This document shows, one piece after another, positions 148 through 16,301 of a stretch of DNA of 64,000 nt (positions are counted from its first letter, which is position 1; every line of letters begins with the position of its first letter). A program made the position numbers and the translations under genes. This DNA is from an uncultured Nitrososphaerota archaeon (lineage in GTDB: Archaea; Korarchaeota; Korarchaeia; Korarchaeales; Korarchaeaceae), in assembly GCA_964618805.1 (NCBI GenBank), contig CAZUBM010000008.1, forward strand, positions 1 to 64,000, given 5' to 3'. The notes beneath the pieces are model-generated. The model made no database searches. It had not been told where the DNA came from and worked only from the letters and a program-made list of their open reading frames with translations.

Positions 148-1461
148 TTATTCAAGTAACATTGATATCGGTCCGGCTTTCCATGCTTCTATTGCAGCTT
201 TTAATTCGGGGTGTTGTTCAGCATATTTTTCTAGTGGAATCTTGCTCATTGTGGCTTCTATTGCTTGTCTGAAAGCTTTTGCTCCCGCCCTTGGGCCCAT
301 TGGATGTGCGTGGATTGCTCCGCCAGCGCCTATAGCTATATCCGTTCCAAAATCCTTTACTAGCTGCGGAACATGCAGCTGGGTTATTCCTCCTGATGGC
401 ATGGGTAGTGTAGGCTTAATGTTATGCATTGGAAACAGCATTGTTCTTCCAGCTTTCAGATATTTCTGTTTAATGAAGAAAGGCTGCTTTCCATAGGGAG
501 CCGGATATACAAGTATGTCCGCTCCAGCCAATCTTGGAAGTTTAGCCATAACTAGGTGGGATGACACGCCTGTTTCAGCATCTTCGTATATGGCTCCGGC
601 GCAGTCCATGTGCCCGAGTATAGGAACTTTAATGCTTGGATCTTCGGCTAAAGCTTTTAATGTGCCTATTCCTGCAGTTAGGTAATTGACCATTATGGCG
701 TTTGCGCCTAGTTCTATAACTTTTTCTGCGAACTCAAAGATTTTCGGTGGGTCTGCAGTAACATTTATCGTGTACATCTTCCTTTCTCCGGTCTCTTGCG
801 CCGCCTTATCGATTACCTCCATATATTTGACGATTCTGTCCTCAACTGTGTTAAATGGCGCATTCGCCAAGAGTTCATCGTCCTTAACGAAGTCTGCTCC
901 GCCAGCGAGAGCTTCATATGCGAGTTTTGCGCCGAGTTCGGGCGGATAGCCAGTGCATGGCTTAATCATGTTGTTAAGAAGGGGCCTTTTTGGAATTTTC
1001 AAGTATTCTCTGATTCCCTGAACCCCAAATTTTGGTCCCTTAAAAATTTCAAGGTAGCTTTTCGGAAATTTTACGTCTATAAGCTTAAGCCTTCCAGCCA
1101 TAGATATGTTTCCTACAATGGTTGTTAGAAGCATCGAAATTTCATTCATAAAGTTCTCGTAGGGATAGGCTATCTGAACAATGTATCTCCTCAATTTCAA
1201 CTCGGCCGGAACTTCGTATTCGAAATCTGGAACTTCATTTATCGATATAACTTTGGCTATATGCCTCCTTCTAAGATCTGGAGTTTCTCCTGGCACGCGT
1301 ATCCAAGTTCCGGTGCTTTGCTCAACGGCGACAGCCATAGAAATCCTATCTATTGGCCAGTCGCGGGGGACAGCCGCATAATAAGTTGCAATTATGTATT
1401 TATCCTCATCTATTCCTTCAGGAAGTGCTAAAGGAAAAGCTTCAATATCCTCAATTGACAT
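148..1461 (-). CDS. RuBisCO-like protein (form IV RLP)
   Basis: EQSTGTW, GPKFG, KPCTG (K177 replaced), intact DFVKDDE (KDDE at 874-885), GHMD (R295 lost), YGK loop 6, PSGG, GAGGAIHAHPMG. ATG at 1461 is preceded by an AGGTGA SD; the ORF track starts at GTG 1470. Confidence 0.9.
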   Translation of the reverse strand: MSIEDIEAFPLALPEGIDEDKYIIATYYAAVPRDWPIDRISMAVAVEQSTGTWIRVPGETPDLRRRHIAKVISINEVPDFEYEVPAELKLRRYIVQIAYPYENFMNEISMLLTTIVGNISMAGRLKLIDVKFPKSYLEIFKGPKFGVQGIREYLKIPKRPLLNNMIKPCTGYPPELGAKLAYEALAGGADFVKDDELLANAPFNTVEDRIVKYMEVIDKAAQETGERKMYTINVTADPPKIFEFAEKVIELGANAIMVNYLTAGIGTLKALAEDPSIKVPILGHMDCAGAIYEDAETGVSSHLVMAKLPRLAGADILVYPAPYGKQPFFIKQKYLKAGRTMLFPMHNIKPTLPMPSGGITQLHVPQLVKDFGTDIAIGAGGAIHAHPMGPRAGAKAFRQAIEATMSKIPLEKYAEQHPELKAAIEAWKAGPISMLLE

Positions 1462-1514
1462 GAAATTCACCTACGTGCTAAATGCACAATAAAATATATA
1501 ACAATGTAGGCAAA

Positions 1515-2067: not shown

Positions 2068-3621
2068 TCAATCGGCTCCTAAATTAAGTCTACGATACAT
2101 TCTCCTATTATTCTTGTAAATTTTCCTGAATTCCCTGAAGATTTTCTCGTATACTGAAATGTTTCTTGGGTTCGGTTCGTAAACATTGTCGATTTTGACG
2201 ACTTTTTCGGCTTCTTCGAAGTTTTTAAGGTAGCCTAGGGCGACCATGGCGATCAATGCTGCTCCTTTGGCGCTAGCTTCTTTAGGATTACAGACCCGTC
2301 TGATACGTCTGTTCAAGACATCAGCAAATATTTGGCACCAGATAGCCGAGAGAGCGCCTCCACCTATGATGTTTATGCTTTCAGCTTCTCCGGACAACTT
2401 CTCCAAATAGCCTAAAGCCCATTTCAGATTTAGTGCAACTCCTTCCAGCACTGCCCGAACTAAATGTTCCCTCGAATGTTCTAGGCTTATGTTGTAGAAG
2501 CCTCCCCTCACAGTTGGATCGTCAAGTGGAGACCTTTCTCCGAAGAGCCACGGAGTAAATATTAGACCGTTCGCACCAGCACTGATCTTAGCGGCCATTT
2601 CATCAAAGGTTCTGTAGACTTCCCCTTGGCCTTCTGTGTATACTACATTTTTTAGCCACTCTAGGCATGCTCCTGCCGTTTCCTGTTCTGCTAGGCACAG
2701 GTACATGTCTGGATTTGCGCTGCAGATGCTCCCAATATAATGGAATATGTCCCTTTTCCTTTCTGAGAGGTGACATCCTAACCAGCTGCTTGTTCCAATG
2801 TATGCATGCATTTTCCCCTCCCTAATTGCCCCTGAGCCTATGGCTGCTGATGCCATATCTCCAGCTCCAACCACTACTGGTATGCCTTGCCGCAGTCCCA
2901 TCTCGGAAGCGGCTTCCGAAGTCAGTTTTCCAGCTATGTCAATTGATGTTCTTATTTCTGGAAGCTTGGCCTTGTCTATGCCGTATTTTTTGAGGATGTA
3001 GTCCGACCAAGTGTATCTTCCTTTTCTTGTGTCCATCATCCACCATATATTTGCGCAGTCTCTGCTCGTAACGAAGTTGCCCGTGCACTTGTATAGGAGA
3101 TAATCCTTGCAGTCCAGAAACTTATAGGTTTCGGTGTAGATTTCTGGCTTCTTCTCTTTCACCCATAATATTTTGCATATTGGGTCTTTTCCGGCGTTTC
3201 CGTAGATTCCACCAGTTATGCTCAAAAATCTTGTCAGGGTAAAGATGTTGTATCCTGCAACTTTTATGATTCCACTGCTCATTCTTTCGGCTTGTTCTTT
3301 TGCTCTTGTATCCAGCCATATCATGCACGGCATTAACGGTTTTCCTTCGCTGTCTACTGGAATCGTTCCAGCCATTTGTGTTGAAAATACTATACCGACT
3401 ATTTCGGATTGTTTAACTCCAGTTTTTTCAAGAAGCTCCCTTGTTGTTCTTGTTATTGCGTTCCACCAATCCGATGGCAATTGCTCAGCGTATCCCTTCT
3501 TTGGATAGTAGGTTGGATATTCGGCCGAGGTATATCCGACTATTTTGCCGTCTATTCCAACCAGTACAGCCTTGTTGCCCGTCGTCCCAGTATCGTGGGC
3601 AAGTATGTATTTCCCTCTCAA
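2068..3621 (-). CDS. FGGY-family carbohydrate kinase (xylulokinase-like)
   Basis: [49 protein letters not shown] motifs. Confidence 0.9.
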
Positions 3622-4847
3622 TGTGGCTCAACCAGTGACTCCAATTTTAATTTTTGAACGTTTCCCTCCTTGTCTATATGTTCAACAAGAATAGGTAAGC
3701 CAGCCGTTTCACCTATCCTTATCTTCTCCTTTGCAAGCATGAAAAGCTCGATGGGATCGACAGCTGCTTCCGGAGGGAAAACTCCTTTCAACCTTATTTT
3801 TCCAAGGGCCATGAGCATTGCTCCTAGAGCAGCAGGCACACCTGTTCCTTCACGCATGCCCATTCCCCTAGATGACATCGAAAACACGTAGGTGCTAGGC
3901 TCACCGTTTTTCTTTCCTTTAACAACTATTTTTAGGCATCCCATGGGCTCGGATATTCCAGCCTCCTTTAACAGTTTTGGCCGTTGATGTAATGCGAAGG
4001 CTACTGCAAAGTCTATGGGCGCAATCTTCACACCATGAACCTCAACTGGTTCTTCACTTGTCATTCCAAGCCTAACAATGCCCTTAATAAGCTCAGCATA
4101 TGCTGGAGGCAAAACTAAGCCCAGATTTGTTACTCGGCGAACCCCCTTGATGTATCTAGGCAAAGTTATAGTTTCGGGATGAGGATAGGCGTATACCCTG
4201 TAGGTTCCAATATCCGGAAATTCAACTTCTTCCTCTAGGGCTTTTCCACTCTCGTCAAGAACGCTGATTGTTTTAAATTCTCCATCAATGAACACCGGAA
4301 TAGGTATCATCATTGAATGTATTCTATGCTTAACGACGGCTGGTCCTTCGGTTTCTTCGCCTCCATGAGCATGATATATGTCTATAGAGTCAACCTCGTC
4401 GAGGAGGTTGTCCGCGCAGAACTTAACGAGGACATTTGCGATTCCTGGAGAGCTTCCCATTCCGATTAGAGCAGATATCCCAGCCTCTCTTGCATTAGAA
4501 TCCATTTTTAAAAGCTGCTCAGTTGCATCAACATCATCGCATATGTCTACATGATTTACCCCAGCATCTATTGAAGCTCTTAGAACCATTGGCGCAAACT
4601 TATAGAATGGGCCTACACAACTCAAAACTACTTCTGAATCTTTAATTACATCCCGTAGATTTCTAGAATTCATCACATCCACTTTGACGGCTGAAACTCC
4701 TTCTATCCCTATTCCAGCCGCTATTTTCTTTGCTTTTTCAAATTTAATATCTCCTATGATAACTTCTGAAAAAATTCCACTTGAAGCAAGAATCTTAGCG
4801 GCCATGCTTCCTACGGCTCCGGCCCCTCCCAAAACAGTAACTTTCAT
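3618..4847 (-). CDS. Saccharopine dehydrogenase / lysine 6-dehydrogenase family NAD(P)-dependent oxidoreductase
   Basis: N-terminal GGAGAVG Rossmann motif, CVGPFY, VDICDD, GMGSSPG, HPET, GVFPPE; 4-nt overlap with the kinase gene. Confidence 0.85.
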   Translation of the reverse strand: MKVTVLGGAGAVGSMAAKILASSGIFSEVIIGDIKFEKAKKIAAGIGIEGVSAVKVDVMNSRNLRDVIKDSEVVLSCVGPFYKFAPMVLRASIDAGVNHVDICDDVDATEQLLKMDSNAREAGISALIGMGSSPGIANVLVKFCADNLLDEVDSIDIYHAHGGEETEGPAVVKHRIHSMMIPIPVFIDGEFKTISVLDESGKALEEEVEFPDIGTYRVYAYPHPETITLPRYIKGVRRVTNLGLVLPPAYAELIKGIVRLGMTSEEPVEVHGVKIAPIDFAVAFALHQRPKLLKEAGISEPMGCLKIVVKGKKNGEPSTYVFSMSSRGMGMREGTGVPAALGAMLMALGKIRLKGVFPPEAAVDPIELFMLAKEKIRIGETAGLPILVEHIDKEGNVQKLKLESLVEPH

Positions 4848-7418: not shown

Positions 7419-8222
7419 TCACGAATTCTCTCTAGTGCTGTCTTTTCCAATAGCCATCTCTATTGGTATCGATTTTAACCATCTGGATTCAAGGTATTGA
7501 ATGAATGGGTCAGCGACTGATGATTCTAAAATGACGACAATTATGGGAGAGCCTCCTTTTCTACCAATTAAAGCAGCACATTTCTTATCGATGAGAAGAA
7601 CTGAAGTTTCGGATTTTGAGATCCTTAATTCAATTCTCTTAAGATTTGTAAGCCATCTATTCGACCAATCGGTGGATGGCAGCATCATTCTAACTCTAGA
7701 GATCCCCAAAAGTCTTAGAAGGGATACTATTTCGTTGAACAACCATCGATCGGAATCAGAAAATATAGCTAGAAACTCGCTTTCTGTTGTTTTTAGAAGG
7801 TCTTTCAAGAGGCCCAAGAACAAATATTCCTCTCTTAATACTAGGACATCTTCCTTCATCCATTGAGATAGCGAAACAAGTTCTGAAACATGATTCATGC
7901 AATCAAGCAATTTTTGAAAGCGTTCTTCTAATTCTAATGACCTCTTAACATAGAGGTTCTTGATAGCCAATTCTGGAGAGATGGGAGAGTATCTTATAGG
8001 CCTAGATCCCTCATATCTAACCAATCCGAGGCCATGAAGTTGCTCAAACGTTCTATATATCCTCTCCACGGGAACTCTGGTCTCTATAGCTACTTTCTTA
8101 GCAGTTGAGGTTCCCTCGCTCAGAAGGAATGCATATACTTTGGCTTGAGTTTCTGTGAGACCTATTTCTTTCAGCGCTTCAATAAGGGCGAGCAATCTAT
8201 CCTTTCTTTTAGAAGGATTCAA
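7419..8222 (-). CDS. TrmB-family transcriptional regulator
   Basis: LKEIGLTETQAKVY, HTH region VPVERIYRTFEQL, GLV...RPIRYSPISP; C-terminal TrmB effector-like domain (LLIDKK). Confidence 0.85.
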   Translation of the reverse strand: MNPSKRKDRLLALIEALKEIGLTETQAKVYAFLLSEGTSTAKKVAIETRVPVERIYRTFEQLHGLGLVRYEGSRPIRYSPISPELAIKNLYVKRSLELEERFQKLLDCMNHVSELVSLSQWMKEDVLVLREEYLFLGLLKDLLKTTESEFLAIFSDSDRWLFNEIVSLLRLLGISRVRMMLPSTDWSNRWLTNLKRIELRISKSETSVLLIDKKCAALIGRKGGSPIIVVILESSVADPFIQYLESRWLKSIPIEMAIGKDSTRENS

Positions 8223-9592
8223 AGAACAACAACTCCCATTACATCCATGACGTTAGTAAGCGTAGGTCCTGTGAAAATCAGGTCATTTAATGCGAGAAAG
8301 AAGGAATAGGAATCATTTCTGTTGAGAAAAGTCGACGGTTTTAGGCCCAACTCCAATGCTCTGCTCAAGCTATTCCCATCAGCAATCGCTCCTGCAGCAT
8401 CAGTTACCCCATCAACTCCGTCCGTGCCAACAGAGGCTATGCAAATTCCTTCTTCATCAGCTATCTTTTCTACGGATCCAAGAACAACCTCTTGATTCCT
8501 TCCGCCCTTGCCTGAACCAACAACCCTAACTGTAGTCTCTCCTCCTGCTAGAACAGCAGCAGGTGGACTTATAGGAACGCTCTGATGTTTTATTCCCTGA
8601 GCAATTCCAGCCAAGGCCTGTCCAACGTGCCTAGCCTCCCCCTCGATGAAGGAACCTAGGACTAGGGTATTTAGGTTCATAGCCTTAGCTCTGTTGGCGG
8701 CTGCAATAAGCGATTTCTCATTATTTGCAACTATGAAATTATGGACTTGCTCAAAAATAGGATCTCCTGGCTTTGGGGTATCCTGAATTTCGCCTCTAAC
8801 TCCTTTCCTAATGGTCTCCACTATGCTTTCTGGCATTTTATTCAAAAGGTCGTACTTCTCTAGTACTTCCCATGCATCTTCGAACGTGGTCGTATCAGGA
8901 GCCGTAGGTCCAGAGGCTATGGAATCGAGAGGGTCACCTATAACATCCGAGATTATGAGAGAGATCACTGTTGCAGGGTAACAAAGCCTGGCCAACCTTC
9001 CCCCCTTCACTTGTGATATGTGCTTCCTAACGCAGTTTATCTCCTGAATTCTAGCTCCACATTCCAGAAGAATCTTTGTAGCTCGATTAAGATCCTCCAA
9101 AGTTATGCCTGGCATCGGCATCTCCATTAGAGCAGATCCGCCCCCTGAGATCAATGCAATAACTACATCAGATTTACTCAACCCTTTGATGAGTTCTACT
9201 ATGTTTCTCGTTCCCTTCAACGTATTATAGTCCGGAATGGGATGACCTGCAGGAAATGCTTTAACTTTCTTTAGACTAAAAAGTCCCTCCGTCCCTTTCA
9301 AAACATTTACACATCCCGCATGAATCTTATTTAAAAGGACGGATTCAACCCCCTCAGCCATTTTACCGCTAGCTTTTCCTGCACCTATTACGAGAACTCT
9401 GCCCTCTGGATGAATTTCTAGGTCTTTAATGGATAATAAATCGTCTTTCAATGATATAGAAGAAGTTATGCTCTTCTTAGCGTCTGCAACTTCTATAGCT
9501 GATTCTAATAGCTTCAACATTATCTCCCTAGCCTTCCTATTTTTCCTACTTGCATTCGATATTATTTCTGAAGAATTTTTGATTATATTCAA
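8219..9592 (-). CDS. Glycerate 2-kinase (class II, DUF4147/MOFRL)
   Basis: GAGKAS, GHPIPD, ISGGGSAL, RKHISQVKGG, SDVIGD, IASGP, GGETTV, GKGGRNQE, GTDGVDG, TGPTLTNVMD. Confidence 0.92.
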   Translation of the reverse strand: MNIIKNSSEIISNASRKNRKAREIMLKLLESAIEVADAKKSITSSISLKDDLLSIKDLEIHPEGRVLVIGAGKASGKMAEGVESVLLNKIHAGCVNVLKGTEGLFSLKKVKAFPAGHPIPDYNTLKGTRNIVELIKGLSKSDVVIALISGGGSALMEMPMPGITLEDLNRATKILLECGARIQEINCVRKHISQVKGGRLARLCYPATVISLIISDVIGDPLDSIASGPTAPDTTTFEDAWEVLEKYDLLNKMPESIVETIRKGVRGEIQDTPKPGDPIFEQVHNFIVANNEKSLIAAANRAKAMNLNTLVLGSFIEGEARHVGQALAGIAQGIKHQSVPISPPAAVLAGGETTVRVVGSGKGGRNQEVVLGSVEKIADEEGICIASVGTDGVDGVTDAAGAIADGNSLSRALELGLKPSTFLNRNDSYSFFLALNDLIFTGPTLTNVMDVMGVVVL

Positions 9593-10857
9593 GGCTCGGT
9601 CAGACCCCTCCTTCCAATTTGTATGCCATCCCTATTGAACTTTAGGTATCCAAACTCTATACACTCAAATTTACCCGAATAATTGGTATAAACCTCTAAA
9701 ATTCCTTGATCAGGCCTGAAATTCTCTATTATTCCAATAGTACAACAAAAACCAAAGTTATCCAAAAATCCTAAGTATAAGCCCTTATATCCCTTTTTTA
9801 TAGCAACTCTTACAGGCTTCCCCCTTATAACAAGGCTCTTTTGAACTTTAGATGAATTCAAAAGACAAAGTATAACATCTGGAGCCTCTTCTGCATATAT
9901 TATTGCTTTATTAAGCAATTTCTCAAGCTCCTGATTGAGTTCGGGATCATGAGAGCCTGAAAAGAATAAAGTGTTTACAAGCCTGGTTTCATGGATATTT
10001 ATCTTAATGCTTTTAGCCCCATTCAAGTATCTTCTTATATTGCTTTGCCTGAAAAGCACCCTATATGGGTGATTTTTCCTTCTTATACTCTTAGCAACCG
10101 GCATTTTAATTATTTCAGAGTTCTTTGGAACCAACTTCACTATGTGCTCTGATTCATTTCCTCTCTGCAGTACCACAATTTTGCTCGGTTCTGTGGCCAA
10201 AATTTTGAACCTCTTTAAAATTCTTGCAGGTCCAGAGTGGATGTATCCGGTTGTGTTTATCAATATGACATCAGCTCCTTCCGATTTTGCAACATCAAGC
10301 AACTTTCTGGTCCCTATAACCATTGGAAGTAGGTGTCCTCTTGGAGTATTATCTCCTACAAAGAAGAGTCTATCTGGATCAACTAGGGATGGGTGGATTA
10401 TCGACTTCCTTATTAACAAGAGACCTATCGTTCCAACTGGTCCAATATCTGACTGGCCTACATCAGCGTCTATAAGACCTACTTTTAGATCCCTGGACGC
10501 CAATCTATTTGCAAGAAATACAAATAATCCGCTTTTGCCTACATCTATGCCTCCGAGTAGCATTACCGTATCTCCAGACTTAATTCTAGCAGCTAACTCC
10601 TCCCACTCCTTTGGAATTATATCTGGAATTTCCATTGGCCTGGAGGGAGCCCATATCTCCAAATCACTTGTCTCAAAAGCTCTTATTAGAACTGGAATTC
10701 CTCTCTCGTAGATTTCTAAGGAGTCGATTTCTGAGCCCCAACACTCAATCTTACCCCTTTTTCTCATTAGTCTTAAGGGACTTAGAAGCAAAAAGCCACA
10801 ATGTGGCTTTAGGATGCACTCAAATCTATGCAAGCCAAGAGTAATGTCATGAGCCAT
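9589..10857 (-). CDS. Clp1/Grc3-family polynucleotide 5'-hydroxyl kinase
   Basis: GGIDVGKS P-loop, DADVGQSDIGP, INTTGY, RxxxR-like lid region; start codon uncertain. Confidence 0.85.
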   Translation of the reverse strand: MAHDITLGLHRFECILKPHCGFLLLSPLRLMRKRGKIECWGSEIDSLEIYERGIPVLIRAFETSDLEIWAPSRPMEIPDIIPKEWEELAARIKSGDTVMLLGGIDVGKSGLFVFLANRLASRDLKVGLIDADVGQSDIGPVGTIGLLLIRKSIIHPSLVDPDRLFFVGDNTPRGHLLPMVIGTRKLLDVAKSEGADVILINTTGYIHSGPARILKRFKILATEPSKIVVLQRGNESEHIVKLVPKNSEIIKMPVAKSIRRKNHPYRVLFRQSNIRRYLNGAKSIKINIHETRLVNTLFFSGSHDPELNQELEKLLNKAIIYAEEAPDVILCLLNSSKVQKSLVIRGKPVRVAIKKGYKGLYLGFLDNFGFCCTIGIIENFRPDQGILEVYTNYSGKFECIEFGYLKFNRDGIQIGRRGLTEP

Positions 10858-10987
10858 TCAAGGGGATTTTTCAACTGATATCTTAAATTATTACGTGTAC
10901 CCGATCGAATTGGAGATAATTAAGGGAGTAGATCTCCAACTTTAACAGTTAAATTATGAAAGAAATTCTAATGGAGAGGTTGTTGGC

Positions 10988-12205
10988 TTGAGACAAGTTG
11001 GACGAGGAGCCACGGCTGCTTCAGAAAAGGGCAACTTAGTTGCAATTTATCACATTGACGCGGATATTTCAGTTAGAAGGGTTGCCAATTTCATTTCTTC
11101 CATACAAAAAAGGGAAGGCGGTGAACAGATAGGCAGCTTGATTTTCAAAACAAAGGTATCAATCATAGATGAGGAAAATTCCCTGTTAGGCATAGAATAT
11201 CCACCCGAGCTCTTCGACCTAGAATCGGGTGGTTTCTCTCAGTTGATTTCAACCATTGCTACTAACTTTTTTGACATTGTTAGGGTAGGCAAGATAGAGC
11301 TTGTGGATATATCTCTTCCAAAAGAGTTCCTAACTTATTTTCCAGGACCTAGGTTGGGAATTGAGGGAGTAAAAAGGCTATTGGCATCTAAAGGGCCTCT
11401 CCTTGGGGTTATAATGAGGACAACACCAGGAATCCTCCCAGCCGCTCAAGCAAGAACATTCTATGATATTGCTCTCTCTGGAATTGACATAGGCGTAGAC
11501 CCTCAATACCTAACGAACCAAGATTTTAGTCCCATAGAAGCAAGAACCTCACATTTCGCCGACATGATAGATAGGGTGAGGGGAGAGACTGGTAGGAAAA
11601 TAATGTATGCCATTAACATAACGTCAAGGTCGGATATGATATTAGAACTTGCGGAGAGATCAGTTGAAAACGGTGCAACTGCTTTAGAAGTTGATATTTC
11701 TAGCACTGGTTTTTCTGCGCTCGAAATGCTGGTAAGGGAGGGGGGATTTGAAGTTCCAATTTATGTAACTGGCGTCAGTAAAACATCTTTTATCACATCA
11801 AAGGGATCGATCTCGAGAAAAGTAGCTGCACTTATTTTAAGGTTACTAGGAGGAGATCTTATTGTCAGAGACTCTATCTCAAGGGGAAGTAAGAATATCG
11901 AAGAGTTAAAAGGTATTGATGAGGTTCTGAAGAGAAAAATGGATGATATTCTTCCAGCAATGCCGGTAGCTTGTAGAGGAATCTTCCCTGGGAGCTTAGA
12001 GGCAAACATACTTACATTCGGTCAAGATCAGGTTTTAATGGCAGATGAGGCAATCTTTTTCCATCCTTGGGGGATAAAAGCTGGTGCTAAGGCCCTAAGA
12101 GAAGCTATGGATGCAATAATGAGAGGAGAAGGCGTTCTAATGGCTGCACAAACCTCTGATGAAATTAAACAAGCAATTGAAAAGTGGGGATATGGCCCAG
12201 TTTAG
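10988..12205 (+). CDS. Degenerate RuBisCO large-subunit homolog (form III-like scaffold, catalytic residues lost)
   Basis: YPPELFD, FPGPRLGIEGV, ETGRKIMYAINIT, RLLGGD, HPWGIKAGAKALREA and AIEKWGYGPV align to form III RbcL, but KPKxG>RTTPG, KDDE>VDPQ (11495-11506), HxHRA>YVTGV, SGG>CRG, GGG>ADE. Confidence 0.85.
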   Translation: MRQVGRGATAASEKGNLVAIYHIDADISVRRVANFISSIQKREGGEQIGSLIFKTKVSIIDEENSLLGIEYPPELFDLESGGFSQLISTIATNFFDIVRVGKIELVDISLPKEFLTYFPGPRLGIEGVKRLLASKGPLLGVIMRTTPGILPAAQARTFYDIALSGIDIGVDPQYLTNQDFSPIEARTSHFADMIDRVRGETGRKIMYAINITSRSDMILELAERSVENGATALEVDISSTGFSALEMLVREGGFEVPIYVTGVSKTSFITSKGSISRKVAALILRLLGGDLIVRDSISRGSKNIEELKGIDEVLKRKMDDILPAMPVACRGIFPGSLEANILTFGQDQVLMADEAIFFHPWGIKAGAKALREAMDAIMRGEGVLMAAQTSDEIKQAIEKWGYGPV

Positions 12206-12229: not shown

Positions 12230-13240
12230 TTAGTTGATATCTGAAAGGGGCATTACTTGAACTCCTCTAAGGAAATCAGGAAGCGGTGCCTTTGTAAACC
12301 AACCATATTCTTCTCTCAGTACCAAAATCGATGCTTGAGGGGGTATTGCACCCTTTTCTGTGAATATTATGTCGATATAGGCAGCAGGTGTCACATCAAA
12401 GGCTGGGTTTAGGACCTCGATGCCAGGGTTCTTTTTCAGGAAAGCCCGATCCACAATCTCTGTTGGATCCCTGAACTCTATTGTTATTAAACCCCCTAAC
12501 ATGCTTTCTGGAGAGAATTTACATGTCTCTGCTGCAACAAAGAAGTTTACCCTTGCTTCGTGCGCAGCAAGTGCGATCATTGAGGTCCCGATCTTATTAA
12601 CTACGGCTCCGTTCGCTGCTACAGCATCTGCTCCTACTATAACCTTATCCACATCTTGCATGAAAAACCTAGCAGCAGAATCAACTATCATCTTTACAGG
12701 AATTCCATAGCTTGCCAGAATAGAAGCAGTTATTCTGCCTTGGTACCTTGGCCTAGTCTCTGTTGAAAACACTGTAAATCTTTTTCCTTCATCCCAAGCT
12801 CTCTTTAGAACAGCTACTGCTGTAGAGCTGTGACAATGAGTCATTACAACATCTCCGTCCTCTATCCTCATCGATCCGAACTCTGCTATCTTGTTTATGG
12901 CCTCTAGAGAGTTTCTGATAAATTCTTCAGAGGCCTTGATCACATCTCTTTTGATTTCCTTAAGAGAGGCTCCCTTCTCATAGGCAGAATAACATCGTAT
13001 CATGACATATCTAAGGGCATTTGGCAAGGAAACGGCAGTAGGTCTCGTTTCATATAGTATTTTAGCTGCCTTAGTCAATTCATCCACAAATTCCTCCTCA
13101 GTTGAAGCAGCAGACTTTTGAGCAATTATTTTCAAAGCCTCAGCAGTGCTCCTAGCTATTTTACCAGCTCCCCTAATCGTCATAGATCTAATTCCTTCGG
13201 CAATGTCATAAACTTCTTGTGGGAGTTTCAAATCAAACAC
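12230..13240 (-). CDS. e2b2: Ribose-1,5-bisphosphate isomerase (eIF2B-related family)
   Basis: [22 protein letters not shown] (catalytic Cys), TETRP, GADAV (catalytic Asp), [13 protein letters not shown]. The real start is likely GTG 13240 or TTG 13231; the ORF-track extension to 13429 overlaps crenactin. Confidence 0.9.
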
Positions 13241-13292
13241 CGACGTTACTATATGCTGAAAAGGACTTTTAACCTTATTGCGGTGGCCAATC

Positions 13293-14555
13293 CTAGAAGA
13301 AGTACCATCCTTCCATTTGTCTCCAGTCCCATCTGTAATCTTCAGCCAAGTAATAACCGTAGACGATTGCACCCCTCCAAACGCTATACTGGGGTTCGCT
13401 GACCATTTTTGGTTCTGATGCAATTCCATGTCTCTCTAGGAGGAGCTTTATCTTTGTAGATGAATCAACAGCTATGTTTTCCAATCCAGGAGGAACTTTC
13501 CAATAGAAGGCTCCTCCTGATAGGATCACCCTCCTGAGGAGTTGTGGCTGGATCTCAACCGGAGTTCTTGACACCGAGATCCTTATCGCCTCACCTAAAT
13601 CAACGTCACCTCTAATTACCTCTCCCGCAACTAATGTGTCTTTAGGAGGGGAAAAGCCACGAGAATAATAGCTCTCAAAGATCTCATGTTTTGGATTGAA
13701 GTAAAATTCTCCTATTAAGAACCTGAGCCAACCTTTATCCTCCATTTCTATCTTTACTGTTGTTTGAGGGATCTGAAAACTTGATGCTAAAGCACCTGTA
13801 TTTTCCTTTGCCCAAGAGACGGCCTTATCCAAATCTCTTGGTACAAGACCAGCAACCTCTTTAAACAGCCTGACAAATTTTTCCTCCTTTGCCAGATCAG
13901 AATATCCTAGATCCTTTAAGATCTGAGCAGAAATCCTGTCAGAATCAGAACCGCCCCTGTTAAGTGGGATTAGGGCCCCGCTAATTACATCTTTGCTAAT
14001 CGGAGTGATCTGTGTGTTTCCATGGCCTGCTTCTAAAACGGTGCAAACAGTAGCTTTCTCAGCAATTGCTACAGCCAATGGCTGAGGTATGATGGTTAAT
14101 GCTTTGACCAAACGCCCCTCCTCCTTATTTACCTCCTCATGAAGTTGAAAGAACTTCTCATACATGTAGGTGGGCGCCTGAGCAGCTAAAGCGGTGACGG
14201 CATAGAAGCCATCAAAGCTGCTTGTCCTCTCTGGTGCGTATTTCAAGAGAGAATATCTCAAAAGCTCTTTAGCCGCCTTCCAACCTCTCTCATCTTTTCT
14301 CTCTATGATCCCATTTCTCATCGGATAAACAAGTCTGCTTAAATCAGCTTTGGACTCCAGGTACTCTATCACTTCTGGACCAACTACTACCTCCTTGGCA
14401 GCATACCCTCTTATTCTCTCAACAGCCTTCGATATCTTAGGAAAGTACGCCCTGTTTTCGATCATATCGGGGATCTTCCCGATCCAAATGGGACCAAACT
14501 TATAGAAAGCCGTCCCAAAATCCTCTCCAAAGACAGGTCGGCCTATTTCTTCCAA
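13293..14555 (-). CDS. Crenactin (archaeal actin homolog)
   Basis: [13 protein letters not shown] (phosphate 1), [30 protein letters not shown] (phosphate 2), [25 protein letters not shown]. Confidence 0.88.
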
Positions 14556-14566
14556 AACAACCCCTC

Positions 14567-15184
14567 CTATACTATAACCCGAAGGGGAACGATCTTTAAC
14601 AGATCCTCATAATCCAAAACATCTGATGGAGAGACCTTTCCAGTCTCTATATCTAGATCCACACCCTCTCTTAATAAGAGATTGCCCTTTATTAGCTGAC
14701 CGTAAGAATAACCTCCCAAACTCATATCGCTCTTAATTACTCTATGACAGGGAATTATCAAAGGGAAGGGGTTTGAGGCCATGTAACCTCCTACTGCCCT
14801 AGGATGCATTCTAAGAAGAGTTCCAAGGGCTCTGTACGTTGTTACTTTACCTCTAGGAATGCTCTTAACCGTCTTGAGAAGCAAACCTCTTCTTCCTGAA
14901 ACAGGGTATAGTCTGACAACGTCAGTTCGTAGAGGAACTTGCCCTTCAAAGAGATCAACTATAAGCTCGGAGATTTCCTGATCTTTTCGGCTAACATCAT
15001 AGTCAAGACGCAGAACTATTCTTCCTCTACTCTTCAAGCAAGTTTCATGAAGATCTGAGAGTGCAAACCTTCTCGTCTTCAGTGGTATGGTGTTACAAAG
15101 CAAAGATCCTCCAATAAAAGCGAGACCTACATGGTAATCATCGACTTCAACTACGGTTGCCCTAGCAATAACGTGTTCTTTCAA
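14567..15184 (-). CDS. ogt: Methylated-DNA--protein-cysteine methyltransferase
   Basis: IPRGKVTTY, PRAVG, NPFPLIIPCHRV active site, LGGY. Start placed at TTG 15184 because the ORF-track start overlaps rtcA. Confidence 0.85.
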   Translation of the reverse strand: MKEHVIARATVVEVDDYHVGLAFIGGSLLCNTIPLKTRRFALSDLHETCLKSRGRIVLRLDYDVSRKDQEISELIVDLFEGQVPLRTDVVRLYPVSGRRGLLLKTVKSIPRGKVTTYRALGTLLRMHPRAVGGYMASNPFPLIIPCHRVIKSDMSLGGYSYGQLIKGNLLLREGVDLDIETGKVSPSDVLDYEDLLKIVPLRVIV

Positions 15185-15251
15185 GGTACCTTCTTCAGAG
15201 GAAACCAAGAAATCATATTTAAAGTGAATTCTCAATAAACCTTGAGTAATT

Positions 15252-16301
15252 ATGAAGGCCATCGTAATAGACGGAAGCTACGGAGAAGGAGGAGGATCGA
15301 TTTTCAGATATGCCTTAGCCCTATCCTCCGTTACCTTGAAGCCTGTAGAAATCCATAATATCAGAGCAAAGAGAAGTAATCCAGGACTTAGACCCCAACA
15401 TCTGACCGCTGCCAAGATATTAGCTGATATGACTGAGGCAGAATTTGAAGGATTGAACATAGGATCCACTAAAGTACGTTTTGAACCCAAAAAAAGGAAA
15501 GGAGGAAAATTTGTCTTTGATGTAGAGACTGCTGGAAGCATATCCCTCATAATACAGGCTGTTCTACCAGTTGCATTGTTTGCGGACAGAGAATCGATTA
15601 TTGAGCTCAGAGGGGGCACAGATGTCAGATTTGCGCCTCCAATCGATTACATGAAGAACGTATTTGTCAAGAACCTATCCCTTATAGGGGTTGAAAACGT
15701 GGAAATAAGTGTAAGGAGGAGAGGGCATTACCCTAGGGGCGGAGGATTGGTAACGCTCAAGGTTAAACCTATTAATAGAATATCTACGCTTAACAGAGAG
15801 CTTAGGGGACCTGTTTCTAAGATATTAGGTGTAGCACATGCTGTAAAGCTGCCCAGACATGTTGTAAAGCGAATAATCTCATCTACAAAGGAGGTTCTTC
15901 AACAATATGGATATAAAAAGATCGAAATAACAGAAGAATGGTCTTATAATGGACATTTGGGGCCAGGAGCTGGTATAACCGTATTTGCTGATACAGAAAC
16001 GATCTTAGGAGCAGACTCTCTTGGAGAGAGAGGAAAACCAAGCGAACAAGTTGGCAAAGAAGCTGCAAAACGTCTAATTCATGAACTAGAAACGAAAATG
16101 GCCTTTGACACTCACATGGGAGATATGATAGTTCCTTATTTGGCCTTGGCCAGGGGTTCATCCCTTATAGGAGTGAGTAAATATACCCTTCACACGGAGT
16201 CTAACTTATGGCTGGCTAAACAAATATTGAATGCCAGCTATGAAGTAATCAAAAATAAGGATGACTCTGCTAAGATTTCTATCAGAGGAATCGGTATTTG
16301 A
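15252..16301 (+). CDS. rtcA: RNA 3'-terminal phosphate cyclase
   Basis: DGSYGEGGG, IRAKRSNPGLRPQH, GGTDV, RGHYPRGGG, DTHMGD (His nucleophile), HTESN. Confidence 0.93.
   Translation: MKAIVIDGSYGEGGGSIFRYALALSSVTLKPVEIHNIRAKRSNPGLRPQHLTAAKILADMTEAEFEGLNIGSTKVRFEPKKRKGGKFVFDVETAGSISLIIQAVLPVALFADRESIIELRGGTDVRFAPPIDYMKNVFVKNLSLIGVENVEISVRRRGHYPRGGGLVTLKVKPINRISTLNRELRGPVSKILGVAHAVKLPRHVVKRIISSTKEVLQQYGYKKIEITEEWSYNGHLGPGAGITVFADTETILGADSLGERGKPSEQVGKEAAKRLIHELETKMAFDTHMGDMIVPYLALARGSSLIGVSKYTLHTESNLWLAKQILNASYEVIKNKDDSAKISIRGIGI

Follow-up and report, generated by a model that had tools for sequence, protein, structure and literature searches.

An intact RuBisCO homolog without the family's active site, kept under purifying selection in Korarchaeia

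The window examined here is the whole stretch of 64,000 nucleotides at positions 1 to 64,000 of contig CAZUBM010000008.1 (GenBank assembly GCA_964618805.1), from an uncultured archaeon of the Korarchaeales. At 10988..12205 on its forward strand lies an open reading frame (ORF) of 405 amino acids (aa), hereafter the target, that encodes a homolog of the RuBisCO large subunit (RbcL) in which nearly all of the classical active site has been replaced. The ORF starts with TTG, has zero internal stops and includes the stop codon in its end coordinate; one ortholog (P0005) has ATG at the same start position. An earlier note on this DNA, made from the letters alone, had described an uninterrupted 405-aa frame preceded by a Shine-Dalgarno sequence, and both were confirmed, with GGAGAGG found 8 nt before the TTG. 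The features of the gene are listed below, with replaced residues numbered by their canonical RuBisCO positions and target residues given as aa.

10988..12205, forward strand: dead RbcL paralog, with the N-domain at about aa 17-115, the TIM barrel at about aa 124-357 and C-terminal helices at aa 363-400
10973..10979, forward strand: putative Shine-Dalgarno-like motif GGAGAGG, read from the sequence, 8 nt 5' of the TTG
10858..10987, no strand: 130-bp intergenic spacer with a divergent Clp1-like gene on its other side; both promoters presumably lie inside it
11417..11431, forward strand: RTTPG (aa 144-148) in place of KPKxG (KPKMG in 2cwx), with K175>R and K177>T
11495..11506, forward strand: VDPQ (aa 170-173) in place of KDDE, with the carbamylated K201>V and the Mg ligands D203>P and E204>Q
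11762..11776, forward strand: YVTGV (aa 259-263) in place of HxHRA; HAHRA aligns as YVT-G, with H294 and R295 lost
11861..11875, forward strand: IVRDS (aa 292-296), with V at the H327 position; the next R is kept in most members of the target's clade
11972..11980, forward strand: CRG (aa 329-331) in place of SGG; variants within the genus are CRG, CGG, YGK and YGG
12041..12049, forward strand: ADE (aa 352-354) in place of the GGG phosphate-binding loop, in alignments with 2cwx and with the genome's own form III RbcL

The gene and its active-site positions

The target exceeds the Pfam gathering scores for both the catalytic and the N-terminal domain of the superfamily: RuBisCO_large (PF00016) matches with 109.1 bits (cut-off 30.1) and RuBisCO_large_N (PF02788) with 24.7 bits (cut-off 20.7). 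Its top sequence match in the PDB is the form III enzyme of P. horikoshii (2cwx, E 9e-43, HMMER alignment), and its highest-ranked NCBIfam model is rubisco_III (TIGR03326), at 185 bits and short of the cut-off of 497.45. Models of MtnW enolase were not reached either (TIGR03332, 133.3 bits vs. 513.6; NF007095, 162 vs. 409). The suggestion in the earlier note that the protein is closer to form III than to form IV is therefore weakly borne out, as the rubisco_III score stands above both MtnW-type scores and all are far under their cut-offs. The scaffold motifs it had listed (FPGPRLGIEGV, ETGRK, HPWG and EKWG) are all present.

Nineteen canonical RuBisCO active-site positions were scored, with counts taken from an automatic MAFFT alignment. 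The target retains only two of them, N123 and G381. Lost are K175 and K177, K201, D203, E204, H294 and R295, H327, K334 and both phosphate-binding loops. The N-domain ESSxGTW loop (E60, T65 and W66), which the earlier note did not list, is absent as well. Every replacement that it did list (KPKxG, KDDE, HxHRA, H327, SGG and GGG) was found again in two alignments, one against 2cwx (HMMER) and one against the canonical form III RbcL of the same genome. As an enzyme-family homolog without the residues essential for the family's chemistry, the target is a candidate pseudoenzyme.

The chemistry shared by RuBisCO and the characterised RuBisCO-like proteins (RLPs) depends on Mg2+ held by carbamylated K201, D203 and E204. 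With no metal site, no phosphate sites and ADE instead of the glycine loop, carboxylation of ribulose-1,5-bisphosphate (RuBP) and Mg-stabilised enolate chemistry should both be impossible for the target, and from its residues we regard carboxylase or RLP-type catalysis as excluded with near certainty.

The K201/D203/E204 site is replaced not only in the target but in every member of its clade. The rubisco_III hidden Markov model traces a gradient of decay, from 632 bits for the canonical protein through 283 for P0007 and 185 for the target to 51 for a copy from another genus (g3, below). P0007 is the least degenerate member and keeps 10 of the 19 sites, among them E60, T65 and W66 together with K175 and K177, but not K201. 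Members from the window's own genus retain two or three sites, and those of other genera show an eroded N-domain.

The target is more degenerate than all 134 representatives outside the clade, whose minimum is 3 of 19 sites kept. The premise of the earlier note that RLPs normally keep K201, D203 and E204 holds for most of these representatives (K201 in 106, all three residues in 97) and fails for the 28 that lack K201, so that loss of this lysine is uncommon but not unique and is found in several separate lineages. The K201-lacking representatives (P0046/P0050, P0107, P0115/P0158, P0094/P0145, P0147, the P0054 group and others), as counted from the automatic alignment, are scattered in the tree, some of them within the form III radiation. 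Degenerate RbcL homologs may thus be a recurrent phenomenon that is not confined to Korarchaeia.

Locus, distribution and selection

The target is flanked by genes that recur with it in related genomes.

12230..13429, reverse strand: ribose-1,5-bisphosphate (R15P) isomerase, e2b2 (TIGR00511, 422.8 bits, cut-off 314.1), convergent with the target
9589..10857, reverse strand: Clp1-like P-loop protein (Pfam CLP1_P, 115 bits), the divergent neighbour and a block member by synteny
8219..9592, reverse strand: MOFRL/DUF4147 glycerate-kinase-type gene (Pfam), a block member by synteny
13293..14555, reverse strand: crenactin-like gene, where the conserved block continues

The 3' ends of the target and e2b2 are 24 nt apart (stops at 12205 and 12230). 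As listed, the e2b2 ORF has 399 aa and overlaps the crenactin gene; orthologs have 336-340 aa and the model match begins at residue 72, and the true start is probably some 60 codons downstream. The assembly (62 contigs, 2.18 Mb, 93.7% complete) encodes three RbcL homologs: the target, an RLP at 148..1470 on the reverse strand, and a canonical form III(-b) RbcL on contig C33 (428 aa, 632 bits with rubisco_III) in which every motif is intact. Two AMP phosphorylase paralogs exceed the TIGR03327 cut-off (C1:226347-227840, reverse strand, 689 bits; C5:32572-34083, forward strand, 619 bits). The active form III gene and AMP phosphorylase for which the earlier note proposed to look are therefore both present, and with the R15P isomerase they make up a complete adenosine monophosphate (AMP) pathway that exists without the target.

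To follow the gene across the class, we searched 40 Korarchaeia genomes for RLP, canonical RbcL and R15P isomerase at curated cut-offs. The window's genus is referred to as g1, and g2-g6 are other genera of the class. Of the 8000 candidates scored in a word-indexed protein search, 21 proteins reached E <= 0.001, five of them 71-74% identical to the target and one (P0007) 43% identical; an exhaustive search of representatives gave 1132 matches at E <= 0.001. Orthologs at 71-74% identity occur in three of the four other g1 genomes. The fourth, which is 75% complete, lacks the whole locus including the isomerase, so the locus is probably unassembled there. Other genera of the family carry shorter homologs (364-376 aa, 30-40% identical) in the same position, and in a genome of the second family of the order (G025) a 374-aa copy and e2b2 overlap at their 3' ends. 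Orthologs with the same losses, which the earlier note had proposed to seek together with shared synteny, are thus found at the same locus in g1 and five further genera, and the clade, which is monophyletic and vertically inherited, spans two families of one Korarchaeia order at one fixed locus. Two clade members, P0007 and P0060, come from outside the searched genomes.

The clade forms one side of a branch with support of 100 both in a FastTree phylogeny of 152 rows and in an IQ-TREE (LG+C20) phylogeny of 62 rows. It falls outside the rows with the full RuBisCO signature and outside the RLP rows, the latter recognised by signature only. Because the trees are unrooted and hold no named form I, II or IV references, they do not distinguish between form III and form IV as the class of the clade. 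A topology that joined the clade to the two korarchaeal canonical form III rows, a group picked after seeing the tree, was rejected in an approximately unbiased (AU) test (delta lnL 120, p-AU 5e-83). Recent duplication of the resident form III-b gene is ruled out by the tree together with this post hoc test. Horizontal acquisition was also rejected: the GC content of the ORF equals that of the window (0.42 in both), and the orthologs track genus and family structure.

The R15P isomerase exceeds its cut-off in 14 of the 40 genomes and is directly adjoined by the dead RLP gene in 12 of them. In the two exceptions (G008 and G011, both of g5) the Clp1-like gene stands next to e2b2 and the RLP has been deleted; these are two species of the four g5 genomes, and both keep RbcL and the isomerase, that is, a complete AMP pathway, at an otherwise unchanged locus. 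Canonical form III RbcL exceeds its cut-off in 15 of the 40 genomes, and the dead RLP co-occurs with it, beside e2b2, in g1, g2, g4, g5 and g6. Neither canonical RbcL nor R15P isomerase exceeds its curated cut-off in any of the 21 genomes of g3. Ten of these nonetheless carry an ortholog of 333-364 aa, between DUF72 and the Clp1-like gene. Deletion is clean in four g3 genomes, each 99% complete, where 20-155 bp separate DUF72 from the Clp1-like gene and no remnant is left. In all 23 genomes of the class with a clade copy the frame is intact (333-406 aa). No stop or frameshift inside the called ORF occurs among the clade-profile matches, the gene being either intact or absent; the sole TGA reported, in G007, falls upstream of the 364-aa ORF.

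Three side observations from other genomes belong here. A g3 genome encodes a 412-aa RbcL homolog (L043, 1968..3206, reverse strand; G043:C9) with KPSVG and KDDE intact and GGG>GRG, which groups with the RLP rows P0027 and P0059 in a genus otherwise without canonical RuBisCO. Another g3 genome, without canonical RbcL, has a short TAG-interrupted RuBisCO_large fragment (G024:C11:3672-3896, reverse strand, 30.6 bits), possibly the remnant of a lost gene. At a g2 locus (L008, 1483..3132, reverse strand; G012:C3) the RLP frame stays open in the upstream direction, to 549 aa and into the Clp1-like gene, as it also does in L021 and L049; an artefact due to a GC-rich open frame, and not a real extension, probably explains this.

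Ratios of non-synonymous to synonymous rates (dN/dS) were computed by NG86 unless YN00 is stated, and pairs with undefined dS were left out. Within g1 the dead RLP has pairwise dN/dS of 0.07-0.11 at dS above 1, and the corresponding ranges for R15P isomerase, canonical RbcL and the Clp1-like gene are 0.02-0.04, 0.015-0.024 and 0.10-0.12. In g3, where dS is unsaturated (0.26-0.70), the ratio is 0.10-0.14 (YN00, 0.20-0.23), on a par with both flanking genes, the Clp1-like one (0.10-0.16) and DUF72 (0.08-0.19); crenactin has 0.01-0.05. Values are 0.19-0.30 in g2 and 0.05 in g5. The dead RLP is therefore under purifying selection, with dN/dS of about 0.05-0.3 in four genera, and its non-synonymous rate is about 3-4 times that of the resident form III RbcL. 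Together with the orthologs and the absence of frameshifts, these values support the view of the earlier note that the gene is intact, catalytically stripped and selected and is not a recent pseudogene.

The block MOFRL - Clp1-like - RLP - e2b2 - (DUF72) - crenactin is present in 20 of 20 korarchaeal loci from two collection scans, several of which are the same contig in both collections. The divergent RLP/Clp1-like arrangement is conserved in g1, g2, g3 and g4, and the RLP-e2b2 pair is the part of the block that survives into the second family. The shared divergent promoter region prompted a look at a functional tie to the Clp1-like and MOFRL neighbours, which was rejected as evidence: g5 species in which the RLP is retained carry different genes upstream of it, and crenactin and RtcA sit in the same block. 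Since these two unrelated genes share the block, synteny alone is weak evidence of function. Over 13293..16301 the block runs on through the crenactin-like gene, a gene for a 231-aa protein with a C-terminal match to the Ogt methyltransferase domain (64.5 bits), and an RNA 3'-phosphate cyclase-like gene (RtcA), an order shared by g3 loci.

The second RLP of the window (148..1470, reverse strand, 440 aa) keeps K175, K201, D203, E204 and H294, with K177>C, R295>M and H327>V; of the NCBIfam models, the MtnW-type NF007095 fits it best (345 bits, under the cut-off of 409). A XylB-like FGGY sugar kinase (354 bits, under the cut-off of 380) lies 0.6 kb away, together with a saccharopine-dehydrogenase-like gene (2068..3621 and 3618..4847, both on the reverse strand). 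From its gene content, this RLP with the kinase looks like an uncharacterised sugar-phosphate cluster.

Predicted fold and residual conservation

An AlphaFold2 monomer model built from a 91-row alignment has a mean local confidence (pLDDT) of 91.5 and a predicted TM-score (pTM) of 0.91, with an N-domain and a (beta/alpha)8 barrel. Confidence dips at aa 1-10, at aa 41-50 (the former E60-W66 loop) and at aa 261-270 (the former H294 region). Even the most degenerate g3 ortholog is modelled with pLDDT 85.5 and pTM 0.86, its N-domain being weaker. The top Foldseek matches of the target model are the RLP of C. tepidum (1ykw/1tel) and the RuBisCO of P. horikoshii (2d69/2cwx), at TM 0.81-0.85; other RuBisCOs and RLPs are among the best matches, which overall reach TM 0.81-0.87. 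A search of the ESM Atlas brought up generic RuBisCO-family clusters only.

Modelled as a homodimer, the target scores 0.69 on the interface measure ipSAE (0.72, 0.69 and 0.69 in three runs), against 0.00 for the best control. The runs share at least 80% of contacts, with partner pLDDT of at least 84. In the calibration, which applies roughly given the custom alignment used here, 20 of 30 solved homodimers scored this high, as did 1 of 23 proteins solved as single chains. The predicted interface is the classical one, with the N-domain of one chain on the barrel mouth of the other. This pass may reflect likeness to solved RbcL dimers and not binding. Conservation of the interface was also tried as support for the dimer and dropped, as it was expected to be higher than in the rest of the protein and came out lower.

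Invariant in 19 clade sequences are G124, G136, P151, G165, E200, G202, G229, G288, H359, P360, G362, G366, D375, R379, G380, E381 and W400. They comprise determinants of the fold and, on the last barrel helix, a D..xRGE motif that is specific to the clade. The invariant residues of this motif lie in the 15-aa stretch where conservation within the clade is highest.

12122..12133, forward strand: RGEG (aa 379-382); D375 and R379-G380-E381 are invariant in 19 of 19 clade sequences and not conserved in canonical form III rows

The former active site shows the opposite pattern. Among 13 non-redundant clade rows the mean entropy of the 19 ex-active-site columns is 1.90, compared to 1.55 elsewhere, a value that random sets of 19 columns reach with P = 0.02. 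None of these 19 columns is invariant, as opposed to 26 of the 373 others. Conservation peaks at aa 188-210 (alpha2-beta3) and aa 365-383 (alpha8), and not at the barrel mouth. With the ex-active-site columns variable and none invariant, a conserved replacement chemistry at the classical site is unlikely.

Proposed role and relation to known RuBisCO-like proteins

Taken together, these results make it probable that the target is an altogether non-catalytic protein of the RuBisCO large-subunit fold, maintained by selection and working by binding. The protein would fold as an N-domain plus a TIM barrel and probably assemble, as modelled, into the classical head-to-tail L2 homodimer. Selection would act mainly on the fold core, that is, on alpha2-beta3 ('SH..DM.DRV..ETGR') and on alpha8 and the C-terminal helices with D..xRGE, and not on the barrel mouth. 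The target would most likely be a scaffold, adaptor or regulator. Its role should be independent of RuBisCO and R15P isomerase, because the gene persists under selection in g3, which has neither. The position beside e2b2 would be left over from an ancestral rbcL-e2b2 pair in which rbcL was freed from catalysis, as could have happened after a separate form III-b RbcL had taken over in the AMP pathway. A metagenome contig (L054) carries e2b2 (2419..3330, forward strand) and a 426-aa RbcL (3327..4607, forward strand; 47% identical to the genome's form III) in the same direction with a 4-nt overlap, apparently a functional e2b2-rbcL operon, and such an operon fits descent of the korarchaeal pair from a functional pair.

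Several points weigh against this reading. The gene has been lost cleanly several times, with no match in 11 of the 21 g3 genomes and absence from two of the four g5 genomes, so that its role is dispensable. Among sequencing runs listed for this DNA were three DNA-type hydrothermal-vent runs and no RNA run. Conservation at the predicted interface falls below that of the remaining protein (entropy 2.11 vs. 1.77); the clade may therefore not share the dimer throughout, or known RbcL dimers may be echoed in the model. Purifying selection is evidence of function, not of non-catalytic function, and since dS is saturated in g1 the ratios given for that genus are rough. Inheritance of gene order may be all that lies behind the synteny with e2b2. 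Most or all members of the clade share R144, D171, S188-H189, Y259, R294, E338, N340 and the acidic pair at aa 353-354, and lineage-specific chemistry may use residues outside the 19 classical positions.

This last point leads to the possibility that the target is a neo-functionalised enzyme whose barrel mouth was rebuilt for a new reaction, possibly on the substrate or product of the R15P isomerase. RLP lineages have repeatedly evolved new chemistries on the RuBisCO fold, R144, D171, Y259, R294 and the acidic pair replacing the GGG loop are polar candidates conserved in most members, and the adjacency to e2b2 in 12 of 14 isomerase genomes extends to the second family. We nevertheless consider such an enzyme unlikely. 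No polar residue of the barrel mouth is invariant in the 19 sequences, in which the invariant residues are glycines, prolines, E200, H359, D375, R379, E381 and W400; the ex-active-site columns are more variable than average, with the SGG position differing even within a genus; selection maintains the gene even in genomes without the isomerase; and the acidic ADE that now stands at the P1 phosphate loop speaks against bisphosphate binding.

The mechanism preferred in the earlier note, hetero-oligomerisation with an active form III RuBisCO, would make the target a regulatory or assembly subunit that heterodimerises with form III RbcL or binds the R15P isomerase and so modulates the AMP pathway, at least in g1. 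A heterodimer would have no complete active site, because both the barrel and the N-domain catalytic residues are lost, and the target would act as a dominant-negative brake. Co-occurrence with canonical RbcL beside e2b2 in five genera, the RbcL-type L2 kind of the predicted interface, the comparatively RbcL-like N-domain of g1 (the most so of any genus, N123 included) and the sites retained by the intermediate P0007 are all compatible with it. As a general function it does not stand, given the ten g3 genomes that keep the gene (dN/dS 0.10-0.23) in a genus where neither partner exceeds its cut-off, and the two g5 species that have deleted it from a locus with both partners at hand. Nor are the convergent genes co-transcribed. 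A heteromer may still form in the window's own genus; as a whole, we regard this explanation as distinctly improbable. Least credible, and in our view very improbable, is a functionless relic, an old RbcL copy in slow decay whose frame stays open by chance or through selection against toxic truncations. The repeated clean losses, evolution faster than that of RbcL and R15P isomerase and the progressive erosion of the N-domain across genera are what such a relic would leave, but the frame is intact in 23 of 23 carrier genomes from two families, dN/dS is 0.05-0.3 and in g3 equals that of flanking genes, the fold prediction is confident even for the most degenerate member, and the gene is seen intact or wholly deleted, never frameshifted.

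Returning to the non-catalytic binding protein, we see an even chance that the clade is, in full, the first recognised pseudo-RuBisCO lineage: derived from an ancestral rbcL-e2b2 pair, selected over family-to-order divergence, kept after loss of RuBisCO and the AMP pathway in a new binding or scaffolding role unrelated to carbon fixation, and with intermediates that record a stepwise loss. RuBisCO and the RLPs are a textbook case of one fold reused for different Mg-enolate chemistries, and a selected lineage without the metal site would carry the family beyond catalysis. The stages of natural decay within the clade also make it possible to ask which parts of RbcL serve folding and dimerisation rather than catalysis. 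There is also a practical side, as Pfam labels the target RuBisCO_large, and metabolic reconstructions of Korarchaeia that count 'rbcL' matches can take it for a carboxylase. The interest lies chiefly in the long-term retention, the independence from the pathway and the series of living intermediates.

The earlier note knew of no described archaeal family of this kind, and our literature search likewise returned no published description of this korarchaeal clade, nor any application of the pseudoenzyme concept to RuBisCO homologs. Korarchaeal RbcL is treated as form III(-b) of the AMP pathway in passages of two papers (PMC12787533, PMC10667645) that do not mention the dead paralog; the supplements of these papers may list it. 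In the available part of a third paper, RLPs are collapsed as an outgroup (PMC13454268).

Compared to the archaeal form III RuBisCOs of the AMP/pentose-bisphosphate pathway (P. horikoshii 2CWX/2D69, T. kodakarensis 1GEH/3A12), the target shares the fold (TM 0.84-0.87), the best PDB and NCBIfam matches, the C-terminus ...EKWGYxP, the predicted head-to-tail dimer type and a locus beside R15P isomerase. It differs in its score (185 bits vs. the 497 cut-off), in keeping 2 of 19 positions, in having neither carbamylation/Mg nor phosphate sites, and in its place in the tree, apart from the form III rows, of which the form III-b gene of the same genome is one.

Form IV RLPs (C. tepidum 1YKW/1TEL, R. 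palustris RLP2 2QYG, MtnW 2OEJ/2OEK) are likewise RbcL homologs with replaced active-site residues, and they do not carboxylate RuBP; the RLP of C. tepidum is the top Foldseek match of the target. Characterised RLPs are enzymes that retain the K201/D203/E204 metal site, and their active-site patterns were reportedly laid out by Tabita et al. in 2007. The target clade, in contrast, has lost this site, and in the unrooted tree it branches outside the RLP rows.

A precedent for strongly degenerate members of the superfamily is given by the 'Form IV-like' RLPs of phages and Beckwithbacteria, of which the phage proteins have highly divergent key residues according to the available part of the source (Jaffe et al., 2019; 10.1101/386292). 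As they are described there, the target clade is set apart from these phage and candidate phyla radiation proteins in being chromosomal, vertically inherited in Korarchaeia and linked to e2b2. It is a new, extremely degenerate variant of RuBisCO-like proteins.

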